From Escherichia phage 241, in the sequence record OR924452: 64,000 nt of DNA, one strand, 5' to 3'. The notes beneath the pieces were generated by a model, which was not told where the DNA came from, did no database searches, and saw only the letters and a list, made by a program, of their open reading frames with translations. Positions 2,516 through 53,267 of this stretch are shown one piece after another. A program made the position numbers and the translations under genes. How positions within the stretch are numbered: the first letter of the stretch is position 1; every line of letters begins with the position of its first letter.

Positions 2516-3358
2516 CTATCGGACATATTGATAATGAGAAACCAGGCGATTCACCACTTCATCGAGGTTACGATTCAAGAAGTCAAAGTGGTTTTGGCCT
2601 TCTACATGCTTAATATAAAGCATATCCTCGCAATTCGAAAGATCCAGTTTTTCATAATTGCCCTGAGGGACGAAGATGACGAAGATGTTATTCAGGGCAC
2701 ACGGCTCAACATACTTCGGATTGTCGTCGATCAGGACATCGCCAGCAAGCAGATGCTTTTCATCCGTGCTCACGAACCCATTAATCAACGATTCAAAGTG
2801 ATGGTATATGAACTGACGCTTGCTGCGTTCGTGTTCCGGTTCGCATTTTGTAACTGCCACCATTTCCACTTGCTCAAACTTCTGAAGGAGAGCGGCCTTT
2901 AAATTCGTAAGGAATTCAACAGCCCCTGGCAGTGGTGACATTCTGGAATACAGATCAGGCATACGCCACCAATCCATCGGATCACGTCCTGTTGGCGAAT
3001 CCATCCACTGACCAGCAACGAATACACGGCGCGTTAACCAGGCCGGATGCGCGCGTTCACGCATGAGGATCGCCAGATCACCAGCGTGTGACATATAACA
3101 CTCTTTGGTGATTGGTTGAAATTCAGATGGGTAGTCGTGACATCCCATATTTTCCGCAGCGGCTTTAGAATTAGAAATATTGAACCATTCAACCCACGGC
3201 GATAGGGAATCAACCAGAGTCAAATCCACATCCACCAGAACGCGATATAACCCGCCAATTTTAGAACATGCGTCATACACACCAACGTGATTATTCATCA
3301 GATTTCTCCACATTGTCATAACCCGTTGCGGTGCATTGTTCTTCGGTGCAATCGGCAT
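2516..3358 (-). CDS. Hypothetical protein with HAD-like DxDxT motif (possible phosphatase/nucleotidase); start codon uncertain
   Basis: 280-aa ORF; motif VDVDLTLVD near the N-terminus resembles HAD motif I; alternative starts at about 3319 or 3313. Confidence 0.5.
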   Translation of the reverse strand: MPIAPKNNAPQRVMTMWRNLMNNHVGVYDACSKIGGLYRVLVDVDLTLVDSLSPWVEWFNISNSKAAAENMGCHDYPSEFQPITKECYMSHAGDLAILMRERAHPAWLTRRVFVAGQWMDSPTGRDPMDWWRMPDLYSRMSPLPGAVEFLTNLKAALLQKFEQVEMVAVTKCEPEHERSKRQFIYHHFESLINGFVSTDEKHLLAGDVLIDDNPKYVEPCALNNIFVIFVPQGNYEKLDLSNCEDMLYIKHVEGQNHFDFLNRNLDEVVNRLVSHYQYVR

Positions 3359-3635
3359 ACAGAACCACAGAAGATTCCTTCACGTAAGTGGTGCAGTGAT
3401 AGGTTTCATCTTCCTGGATGGAATCATCATAATTGCAAACAGTTTGCAACGGACCAGGAGTCGTGTTGTCCAAAGCTGCATGTGCCTTGATGGTGTCTTC
3501 CATCTTATTCACCGCTTGCTGATTGGTGAACGTCGGCGCATCGAGGTCAACAGTAGACGCAACGTCCAGAAGGGTAGAGCATGCAGTGGTAGAGAAAGCC
3601 AGAGCACACACCAGAAGAATCTTATTGAGTTTCAT
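3291..3635 (-). CDS. Secreted Cys-rich protein with signal peptide
   Basis: Internal start MKLNKILLVCALAFSTTACS is a signal-peptide-like N-terminus; six Cys in the mature part. Confidence 0.5.
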   Translation of the reverse strand: MKLNKILLVCALAFSTTACSTLLDVASTVDLDAPTFTNQQAVNKMEDTIKAHAALDNTTPGPLQTVCNYDDSIQEDETYHCTTYVKESSVVLYADCTEEQCTATGYDNVEKSDE

Positions 3636-7598: not shown

Positions 7599-7604
7599 AA
7601 TATT

Positions 7605-7644
7605 TATTGAATAAAGTTTACTTCTTCAATAACTGGCGTATACT
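7605..7644 (+). promoter_or_regulatory. Sigma70-like early promoter (TTTACT-16 nt-TATACT) with upstream TTATTGAATAA palindrome
   Basis: -35-like TTTACT 7617-7622, -10-like TATACT 7639-7644, 16-nt spacer; the same architecture recurs at 53223-53267. Confidence 0.55.
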
Positions 7645-17011: not shown

Positions 17012-17158
17012 CTACACTGCCCACAGCAGTGCGGACGAACCTTCACTCAAAACCGGATGCGCCGAAGTGGGCAACTGTTTACCGGACTGATCGGGTAGAC
17101 CCAGGAGAGAGCAGGTAATCCCGATCAGGAGGATGAGGAGTAACATCATGTAAAACAT
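17012..17158 (-). CDS. Small hydrophobic peptide (48 aa), not in the ORF track
   Basis: Strong RBS GGGAGGG 6 nt before the ATG; translation MFYMMLLLILLIGITCSLLGLPDQSGKQLPTSAHPVLSEGSSALLWAV. Confidence 0.35.
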   Translation of the reverse strand: MFYMMLLLILLIGITCSLLGLPDQSGKQLPTSAHPVLSEGSSALLWAV

Positions 17159-17215
17159 AGTGTTCCCTCCCTTCCATGCAACTAACTTTACTGCATTTAT
17201 TTATTGAATAAAGCG

Positions 17216-17785
17216 TTATTTTATCAATTCTAACTTCACAACGCGGCGCAGAAGATAAACATATTCATTAGATGCTTCATGCGACATATAATGCGTAGAA
17301 GGGGTGGAATGGTTGTTCTGGGTTTCTTTTAACCCAACGCGTTCAGCCCAACCATTAATGGAGTTCCCATAAAACCCGATAATCGCGCCGAAATAAATGC
17401 GCTGGCTCTCTGGTTCTAAAATATAGTTGACAGTGAAACAGATGTCAGAACGAATAGATTCTAATTTTATACCGACCCGACCTTCAGAGAATTCGTTGCG
17501 AACATACAAATGACGAAAACGATCGCGTCGCGCTTGTGATGACTCTTCCAATTCTTGGCGAAGTGAGGATGTTGCATCGATATTAAATGAAAATGTCGGG
17601 TTTTGCAAATCGGTACGGGCTAACTCTAATGCTGATTCAACAACACGGCGGAAATTAATATTTTTGCCAGTCAGACGTTTCACTTCTTCTGTAATTGTTC
17701 CGAAAGGGATTTTTACAACACGTTCCCCTTCGTATTTTGCTAACAAAGGGATGATGTGTTTCATTATTGCTGTATTAATGTGCAT
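17216..17785 (-). CDS. Hypothetical protein
   Basis: 189-aa ORF flanked by AT-rich intergenic regions carrying the TTATTGAATAA motif. Confidence 0.55.
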   Translation of the reverse strand: MHINTAIMKHIIPLLAKYEGERVVKIPFGTITEEVKRLTGKNINFRRVVESALELARTDLQNPTFSFNIDATSSLRQELEESSQARRDRFRHLYVRNEFSEGRVGIKLESIRSDICFTVNYILEPESQRIYFGAIIGFYGNSINGWAERVGLKETQNNHSTPSTHYMSHEASNEYVYLLRRVVKLELIK

Positions 17786-17939
17786 TTCCTGAGCCTCGTC
17801 AAATTAATTAAATGTCCCCACTATTATATTGGGAATATGTTTATTGAATATAACTCCAAGAAAGGCCAATAAAATAATGACAGCGATTATTAATAGGTAA
17901 AAACTACTTTTCTACAACATCAAGAAACTGTATCTTAAC

Positions 17940-18090
17940 GCGGTGCCCTTCGAGTTGTGAGTGTTAACGAACAACGAGAAGCAGCCTCCATGGCTGCGGA
18001 ATGGGACTGCCTGTCAAGGCGGTGTTACGAGCGAGGGCGTCAGCCCCCTCGCGAGTATATTCGAATAAATTAACGCGCGAGAGCGTTTTG
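17940..18090. repeat. GC-rich CGAG-repeat noncoding element (copy A)
   Basis: Contains CGAGTTGTGAG, AACGAG and ACGAGCGA words shared with a second copy at about 59985-60050. Confidence 0.4.
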
Positions 18091-18101
18091 ATTCCCTTTG
18101 G

Positions 18102-53213: not shown

Positions 53214-53222
53214 ATTTAAAAT

Positions 53223-53267
53223 TTATTCAATAAACGGGGTTTACTTCTTCAATAAACCCCGTATACT
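53223..53267 (+). promoter_or_regulatory. Sigma70-like early promoter (TTTACT-16 nt-TATACT) with upstream TTATTCAATAA palindrome
   Basis: -35-like TTTACT 53240-53245 and -10-like TATACT 53262-53267; near-identical to the 7605-7644 element. Confidence 0.55.

Follow-up and report, generated by a model that had tools for sequence, protein, structure and literature searches.

A small open reading frame within a conserved RNA fold at the edge of an RNA island in Escherichia phage 241

Introduction

Phages of the ViI-like group (Kuttervirus and relatives) find wide use against Salmonella and E. coli O157. In Escherichia phage 241 (accession no. OR924452), a 64,000-nucleotide (nt) stretch of DNA, hereafter the window, was assigned to Kuttervirus (Ackermannviridae). 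On its minus strand, at 17012–17158, lies an ATG-started open reading frame (ORF) of 48 codons, encoding MFYMMLLLILLIGITCSLLGLPDQSGKQLPTSAHPVLSEGSSALLWAV, at the edge of a region referred to here as the RNA island. The locus raises a simple question: does so short a frame encode a peptide, or is it a by-product of a structured RNA? An earlier note on this DNA had described an unannotated hydrophobic peptide with a strong ribosome-binding site, of a pattern seen in small lysis or envelope peptides. The ORF and the site are both present as described, the Shine-Dalgarno (SD) sequence GGGAGGG lying at 17165–17171 (minus strand), 6 nt 5' of the ATG. The combination of GGAGG, a 4–9 nt spacer, ATG and at least 40 open codons occurs seven times in the window against 1.6 expected; the remaining six matches sit in long ORFs of at least 77 amino acids (aa), which we take to be genes. 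The answer favoured here, with moderate confidence, is that the locus is a structured small messenger RNA (mRNA) for a single-pass membrane peptide, in which initiation is restricted by the fold.

A conserved RNA fold over the ORF

Loci for comparison were collected from Kuttervirus, Agtrevirus, Taipeivirus, Limestonevirus, CRW-SP2, Yersinia phage CAU_YEP3, IMG/VR contigs and the contigs encoding the most divergent peptides. In addition, two metagenome contigs were recovered by a DNA pattern that did not require an intact ORF. The resulting alignment, A2, holds 27 distinct sequences from three genera and metagenomes. RNAalifold predicted 62 base pairs on this alignment, 16 of them with compensatory double changes, in a fold of about 190 nt that runs from the ribosome-binding site to just beyond the stop codon. 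Standard pairs fill 98.5% of the cells, compared with 42–48% when the 3' partners were slid by 1–3 columns. The same slid controls gave 2–6 double-change pairs and covariation scores of 0.03–0.05 (observed score, 0.199), and not one of 500 shuffles reached any observed measure of the fold. The hairpin arms change coordinately across the relatives, and the non-coding flanks are as well conserved as the ORF. The RNA fold is conserved by covariation.

The whole cassette, comprising an AT-rich element, the ribosome-binding site, the ORF, the RNA fold and most of a promoter-like site, corresponds to a 248-nt covariance-model match at 16970–17217 (minus strand, as are all features of the cassette given below). 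The model (R1, from 27 distinct relatives) found a single match per genome, scoring 299 bits here and 187–305 bits in the relatives. No paralogues of the cassette were found with it, and Limestonevirus holds only a stub. Searched against Rfam 15, the cassette interval gave no match at gathering thresholds or at E ≤ 1.

Hairpin H3 (17142–17164; AAC..UAUGU-UUU-ACAUG..GUU) takes in the start codon; it shows a UA-to-AU double change in five sequences, and such changes occur in Taipeivirus. The fold is closed by a long-range helix, H4. Its 5' arm is the pyrimidine tract UCCUCAUCCUC at 17129–17139, which encodes the Leu and Ile residues of codons 7–10, and its 3' arm is the purine tract GGGGAGAGGA at 16996–17005, just 3' of the stop codon. 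H4 is nearly invariant, being paired in 99.6% of cells with only wobble-preserving changes. The most divergent relative, L084, alters both arms and thereby obtains a stronger helix (-17.5 kcal/mol for its own pair, against -13.3 kcal/mol when its 3' arm is combined with the 5' arm of the window).

Three further arms lie inside the coding sequence. H5 (17089–17126; arms 17126–17120 and 17095–17089) spans codons 11–24 in the transmembrane-coding part and joins GAUCGGG to CCCGAUC in the window; across the alignment, 100% of its cells are paired. It has undergone three independent double changes, to GAUCGGC/GCCGAUC, GAUAGGG/CCCUAUC and CAUCGGG/CCCGAUG, one of which costs an Asp-to-Tyr replacement. 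H6 (17059–17072), a short hairpin, lies in the variable central part of the ORF and has two double-change pairs. The composite H7-H8-H9 (17009–17048) consists of an outer helix, a UUCG mini-hairpin and a terminal hairpin; it covers the last 12 codons, the stop codon and 3 nt past it, and carries nine double-change pairs. Within it, H9 has been rewritten from GCACUGC/GCAGUGU to GCAGGA/UCCUGU. In L084, H6 is replaced by GGAAG-UUCG-CUUCC and both H7 and H9 are rewritten with pairing kept, so that every arm is retained with new sequences. A further predicted hairpin upstream of the ribosome-binding site, H1 (17185–17214), contains no double changes and, lacking covariation, is probably not a real helix.

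Selection on the frame and on the peptide

The reading frame is open in all relatives, over lengths of 47–63 codons; its loss in related phages was what the earlier note had named as evidence against a peptide. Insertions and deletions inside codons 1–41 measure -3, -3 and -6 nt, all three being multiples of three, while none of the 14 events elsewhere in the alignment is (1, 2 or 4 nt each; Fisher p = 0.0015). Two further relatives have 1-nt insertions, only 3' of the stop codon. Frames +1 and +2 gain and lose stops among close relatives and frame 0 never does. When the 109 substitution events were randomly re-placed at the same consensus base, all ORFs stayed open in 52 of 5000 trials (p ~ 0.01). 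The ATG and the SD, moreover, are present in every sequence at fixed spacing despite indels of 1–4 nt just upstream. An alternative frame beginning MEGRE (ATG at 17177) was considered as a candidate and rejected: it has no ribosome-binding site, its ATG is lost in two relatives (L030 and L033), and its stops differ between close relatives.

Residues 1–21 have a mean Kyte-Doolittle hydropathy of 2.44, and residues 4–20 are predicted to form a single transmembrane segment. Where chance would give 6.7 changes to polar or charged residues among the 33 substitution events in codons 4–20, one is observed (p = 0.0002). In the unpaired, hypervariable codons 14–17, 12 of 13 codon variants are membrane-compatible (binomial, about 0.015). 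Thus, the frame is under selection and N-terminal hydrophobicity is maintained. From these patterns in the sequences we argue that ribosomes read frame 0 and that a hydrophobic N-terminal segment is wanted.

The N-terminus had also been called signal-like, and this part of the description fails. No Lys or Arg precedes the hydrophobic core to form a positively charged n-region, and no signal-peptidase motif is found in the N-terminus. The Cys at position 16 varies among C, F, Y, L and R in the relatives, so that no lipobox is conserved. Taken together, these features indicate that the N-terminus is, as judged by its sequence, a membrane anchor and not a signal peptide of the Sec or lipoprotein type.

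The remainder of the peptide is a different matter. The tail of the window's peptide is indeed rich in Pro and Ser (three and five, respectively, in 27 residues; hydropathy -0.12), as previously remarked, but as protein it is not conserved. Through a 1-nt deletion at codon 42 it falls in another frame in 9 of the 27 sequences; these include some metagenomic relatives as well as Taipeivirus and CRW-SP2. One group has GSSALLWAV as its tail and the other SPQDFGSCCSRGEDFSN; H9 is kept in both, and the hairpins encoded by the tail are preserved through compensatory changes. Since the helix is maintained while the tail is frame-shifted, the Pro/Ser tail is an RNA feature that happens to be read in one frame.

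Nei-Gojobori counts over ten genome pairs point in the same direction. For the small ORF as a whole, the ratio of non-synonymous to synonymous differences (pN/pS) is 1.15 in frame 0 and 0.91 and 1.01 in the off-frames, with a synonymous value (pS) of 0.19. Codons 1–21 give 0.84 (off-frames 0.78 and 1.36; pS 0.21), and codons 22–41 give 1.55 (off-frames 1.01 and 0.76; pS 0.18). In the adjacent 189-aa gene the same genome pairs give 0.37 (off-frames 1.17 and 1.48; pS 0.72). Compared with that gene, the small ORF hardly varies at its synonymous sites, and the cassette is 70–96% identical where the gene is only 53–69% identical. There is no amino-acid-level constraint, and the dominant constraint is RNA secondary structure over the whole ORF.

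Access to the start site and the proposed explanation

In thermodynamic ensembles of ten relatives, the AUG has an unpaired probability of 0.00–0.20 and the SD of 0.14–0.51, with an all-base average of about 0.36. Sequestration of the start codon by the fold is therefore a prediction of these models. Four tracts are invariant or nearly so: the SD, codons 7–11, a CUCUCCU at 17103–17109 in the loop of H5, and the purine tract after the stop codon. They allow two mutually exclusive arrangements. In the first, codons 7–10 pair with the purine tract, as in H4, and the SD pairs with CUUUUC past the stop. In the second, the SD pairs with CCUC of codons 7–8, and CUCUCCU pairs with the purine tract as a pseudoknot. 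Of the eight pairs between CUCUCCU and the purine tract, seven are standard in no fewer than 26 of the 27 sequences, and covariation is seen in none of them. L084 is the sole sequence that discriminates between the arrangements, and it favours the first. To judge from the tracts, a conformational switch between the two pairings is possible.

The explanation that best accommodates these results is a self-contained cassette of about 200–250 nt that would act as a small, highly structured mRNA, transcribed either as a unit of its own or as the 3' part of the transcript of the 189-aa gene. Its ORF of 47–63 codons would be translated to a single-pass membrane peptide. The compact fold would hold the start codon in H3 and part of the SD in pairs, H4 would join codons 7–10 to the purine tract just after the stop, and H5, H6 and H7-H8-H9 would form three internal arms within the coding sequence. 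Such a fold would limit ribosome loading and probably stabilise the RNA, so that the peptide might be made at a low level or only once the fold opens. Only the N-terminal transmembrane segment would matter as protein, the rest of the ORF being constrained as RNA. Translation, membrane insertion, the factor that opens the fold and the effect of the peptide on the host membrane are all inferred.

More tentatively, the cassette may be a dual-function phage RNA, combining a fold with a job of its own, as for the other conserved structured RNAs of the adjacent island, a membrane peptide, and a two-conformation switch that its invariant purine and pyrimidine tracts would form and that would be coupled to translation.

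Several results weigh against the structured-mRNA explanation. The pN/pS ratio of the annotated frame is close to 1 and does not improve on those of the other frames, and hence the evidence for a peptide rests on the frame, stop and hydrophobicity tests. The constraint on the RNA in part confounds these tests as well, since U at second codon positions sits in paired tracts. One relative has an Arg inside the transmembrane segment. The single-sequence folding energy is unremarkable (z-score -0.82, not significant), and the helices that would sequester the SD (H2, or the SD with codons 7–8) have no covariation support, being invariant. Neither an antisense promoter nor a complementary partner RNA was found. 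A sigma-70-like promoter on the opposite strand is absent here and not conserved in the relatives, a search that would miss phage-specific promoters; no repeat complementary to the cassette occurs in 14500–18100, and the best duplex with the island (-39.8 kcal/mol, shuffled mean -41.2) reveals no partner. Expression data for the ORF were not found in the CBA120 genome paper or in the paper on Vi01-like virion proteomics, whose mass spectrometry of virions does not address a non-structural peptide. No transcriptomic, ribosome-profiling or non-coding RNA study of Ackermannviridae was found in the literature.

Other explanations

The two exclusive pairings are also what a leader-type regulatory ORF would use, in which translation, and not the peptide, matters. 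A ribosome would melt H3–H9 and free or occupy the purine tract by the stop codon, toggling the pairings and so determining what becomes of the transcript, or whether it is read through into the island. This would suit a frame that is kept while its amino-acid sequence is not, four invariant purine and pyrimidine tracts whose two pairings each fit every sequence, a stop codon directly before the closing-helix arm, and the position of the cassette directly upstream of the island. It does not suit the hydrophobicity of residues 4–20, which goes far beyond chance, or the frame-shifted lineages, in which the stop lies 27–42 nt further downstream and the element is kept. A conserved promoter-like site separates the cassette from the island; moreover, the cassette survives where the tRNAs have been lost together with most of the island, and the island is also found where there is no cassette. 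Set beside known leader-attenuators, the locus could form exclusive pairings, but it has no regulatory codon run, no canonical terminator hairpin or terminator-like site at the cassette, and a cassette and island that occur independently. A leader ORF is a rather doubtful account.

An unlikely explanation, somewhat less favoured than a leader, is a pure non-coding RNA, the first structured RNA of the island. The ORF, its ribosome-binding site and its hydrophobicity would be incidental, as by-products of purine- and pyrimidine-rich helix strands in which CUC CUC AUC CUC CUG happens to be read as Leu and Ile. The strong covariation, the pN/pS near 1, the frozen synonymous sites and the frame-shiftable tail are all as expected of such an RNA; the MEGRE frame is likewise open, for 32–63 codons, and neighbouring island blocks are similarly conserved with compensatory pairs. 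What it leaves unaccounted for is the length pattern of the indels, the absence of in-frame stops where off-frame stops come and go, the fixed spacing of ATG and SD despite the upstream indels, and the membrane-compatible variants in the unpaired codons 14–17.

A role in lysis or the envelope, of which the earlier note had seen the pattern, would make the peptide a holin, an antiholin or spanin-like, and is very improbable. The peptide is small and has one transmembrane segment, at its N-terminus, and a paper of 2011 (PMC3184105) reported that no holin had been identified in ViI-like phages, but nothing ties the ORF to lysis, since its neighbours are a baseplate wedge gene, the 189-aa gene, structured RNAs and tRNAs with no endolysin or other lysis gene adjoining, its tail is nearly uncharged and not conserved as protein in place of a charged C-terminal domain, it has neither a lipobox nor a Pfam match at E ≤ 10, and the dual-start look of M1/M4/M5 is lost in Taipeivirus (MTIIA).

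Comparison with known systems

Type I toxin mRNAs (hok, ldr, tisB, ibs, zorO, aapA1) encode peptides of fewer than 60 aa with one hydrophobic helix. These mRNAs are short, with a compact conserved fold, a long-range 5'–3' helix, an occluded start and RNA-level conservation in the coding sequence. The present locus resembles them in its 48-aa hydrophobic peptide with a transmembrane helix predicted from sequence, in its compact conserved fold with H4 as the long-range helix, in its paired AUG and in the RNA-level conservation of its coding sequence. The fold typical of type I mRNAs is thus found here, with H4 backed by one compensatory lineage (L084) and the SD pairing without covariation. Unlike type I systems, the locus has no antitoxin RNA that could be found, no sequence relation to the Pfam toxin families, and is carried by a strictly lytic phage family and absent from bacterial genomes. 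No claim of membership in the type I toxin-antitoxin systems is made here, as the searches for an antitoxin RNA were negative.

Dual-function small RNAs (S. aureus RNAIII/delta-hemolysin, SgrS/SgrT and B. subtilis SR1/SR1P) are similar in being structured RNAs of about 200 nt with a short ORF, under selection on both the RNA fold and the ORF. They differ in that the ORF here fills about 75% of the RNA, which is perhaps no more than the 3' portion of a longer mRNA. The mRNA of the lambda S holin, with its sdi stem-loop, is likewise a phage message for a membrane protein whose start region lies in a hairpin. In contrast to lambda S, there is no lysis cassette and no conserved dual start here, one transmembrane segment is predicted instead of three, and the structure runs through the whole ORF. 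Type I toxin mRNAs and dual-function small RNAs are the closest known systems.

Relatives and annotation

The region 16850–17300 is 100% identical to Salmonella phage Marshall, and within it a 361-nt stretch (16900–17260) is identical in Marshall, PS5 and Matapan. The ORF is without annotation in Marshall and PS5, to which extent the description "unannotated" was correct; in Matapan (Matapan_045), Vi01 (Vi01_178), CBA120 (orf219) and Ag3 (orf00219) it is annotated as a hypothetical coding sequence. The peptide is a full-length member of PHROG 8415 (E = 2.5e-33 over residues 1–48), a family of hypothetical proteins of ViI-like phages, Vi01_178 and CBA120 orf219 among them, with no assigned function. 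The ORF family itself is therefore already known in the databases as a hypothetical protein. The RNA structure and the frame-shifted tails of PHROG 8415 appear not to have been described previously; as far as Rfam and the searched literature show, this extends to the fold over the ORF, the selection on frame and not on residues, and the frame-shifting of the tail.

The distribution of the family is narrow. The ORF was detected by tblastn in 199 phage records, and DNA homology reaches the Taipeivirus phages of Klebsiella and Serratia, with an identity of about 75%. Among 5.8 billion proteins searched, 18 clusters were found, all of the ViI-like phage group. A profile search of 1.84 billion representatives gave seven clusters of the family itself and one weak stretch in a 579-aa protein, and no remote protein relatives. 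Pfam at E ≤ 10 returned no family for the peptide, including none of the known toxin or membrane-peptide families (Hok/Gef, Ldr, Ibs, TisB, holins), and nothing for the alternative-frame peptide or the 189-aa neighbour. DNA pattern scans found no cassette in bacterial genome collections, many chance matches in viral contigs and only two new members in metagenome collections.

Neighbouring sequences and the RNA island

The cassette lies between the conserved 189-aa gene (PHROG 3788) and the promoter-like site. For the protein of this gene, a PDB sequence search returned only spurious matches to designed proteins, and a single-sequence AlphaFold model was unusable (predicted local distance difference test score, 36). 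Between the stop codon of the gene and the ribosome-binding site is the AT-rich element at 17185–17214, GCTTTATTCAATAAA...AGTAAAGT, the one cassette component that Limestonevirus shares. It is possibly a promoter or operator, although it is a poor sigma-70 promoter, passing the criteria in 1 of 27 sequences.

The sequence TATTCAATAAA, the core of the palindrome TTTATTCAATAAA, occurs in 16 copies with up to one mismatch, against 2.3 expected, at sites including 7603–7615, 17200–17212, 17840–17850, 53222–53234 and 12 others. Its contexts are mixed: it is found within GTTTAC-17-TATACT promoter-like sites, between the ends of genes and terminator hairpins, and 5' of the 189-aa gene. For this reason it was not called a promoter box. 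It could be an operator or promoter element of the phage family.

Directly after the cassette, at 16966–16994 (minus strand), is the promoter-like site TTTTCA-17-TATAGT. The form TTTTCA-16/17-TAnnnT is found in 27 of 29 relatives, with the -10 varying among TATAGT, TAAAGT, TAGAGT and TATCAT. This site is probably the start of the first island RNA. Homology to most Kutterviruses breaks at 16965, just 3' of the site. The conserved site, with a mosaic breakpoint immediately downstream, suggests that the island RNAs are exchangeable cassettes with their own promoters.

Two lineages separate the small-ORF cassette from the island. Yersinia phage CAU_YEP3 (L020, accession no. PQ863687) keeps the cassette and about 260 nt after it (2985–3462), and is without all tRNA genes and most of the island, equivalent to about 12850–16760 of the window. 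Conversely, the cassette is missing from Limestonevirus, in which a portion of the island is present along with the upstream AT-rich element. Because cassette and island each occur alone, the former is a discrete cassette at the island edge and not an integral part of it. In Dickeya phage LIMEstone1 (L006), the cassette slot holds an unrelated, unannotated 52-aa ORF (3261–3419, minus strand); its ribosome-binding site is AAGAGGA, and its product, CPTCGRRDNDGGPMCMKTFC, is rich in Cys and resembles a zinc ribbon. In some relatives an extra gene of 82–92 aa is inserted between island blocks, some hundreds of bases past the cassette (L034 3311–3589, L037 2868–3116, L038 1331–1579, L005 2842–3093, L024 2365–2616), which is not in the window.

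The RNA island itself (14668–16965, minus strand) is an ORF-free region of about 2.3 kb. The CBA120 paper of 2011 (PMC3184105) had already noted it as an unexplained gene-free region, of about 2 kb next to the tRNAs. The island is a mosaic of blocks at 71–99% nucleotide identity that span Kuttervirus, Agtrevirus, Taipeivirus and partly Limestonevirus, and it is better conserved than the flanking protein gene. RNAalifold found compensatory pairs in five of six blocks: 4 in 16770–16570, 12 in 16515–16195, 11 in 16100–15955, 14 in 15620–15365 and 26 in 15262–14890. None was found in the block 16975–16760, for which only six sequences were available. No Rfam family matched the island.

Two tRNA-like elements lie within the island, both missed by ARAGORN and by the Rfam tRNA model. 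The first, of about 125 nt at 15955–16100 (minus strand), has the acceptor GCCGTT/AACGGC followed by T-CCA, a T-arm GGGTTCGACTCCC and 11 compensatory pairs. The second, at about 16515–16610, reads GGCGAGG...GTGTGGTTCGATTCCACAC...CCTCGCC-A. Five long inverted repeats (14780–14894, 15094–15187, 15561–15694, 15841–15973 and 16377–16459), with arms of 21–26 nt that are 86–100% complementary and 39–92 nt apart, resemble the long hairpins of structured RNAs.

Beyond the island, the sets of tRNAs vary even among close relatives: the window carries Ile, Tyr and Met tRNAs, and Marshall Ser, Asn, Trp and Met. Between the tRNA genes are a 144-aa ORF (13827–14261, minus strand; PHROG 5018) and a 74-aa ORF (14274–14498, minus strand) that matches part of PHROG 3684. 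At the corresponding place, Marshall and CBA120 carry an HNH homing endonuclease overlapping tRNA-Met.

Implications for the ViI-like phages

The small ORF at the island edge is neither junk nor an ordinary gene. To our knowledge, an ORF held within a fold that hides its start is known from bacterial type I toxins and dual-function small RNAs, and has not been described for Ackermannviridae. The cassette is a compact example, open to experiment, of constraints on RNA and on protein that overlap. It also calls for caution in annotation, as the amino-acid conservation of PHROG 8415 largely reflects RNA structure. In addition, it provides an entry point to the adjacent conserved structured RNAs. 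Should the dual-function possibility prove true, the cassette would be the first characterised member of a set of structured RNAs that is without an Rfam match, specific to Ackermannviridae and better conserved than the flanking protein genes.

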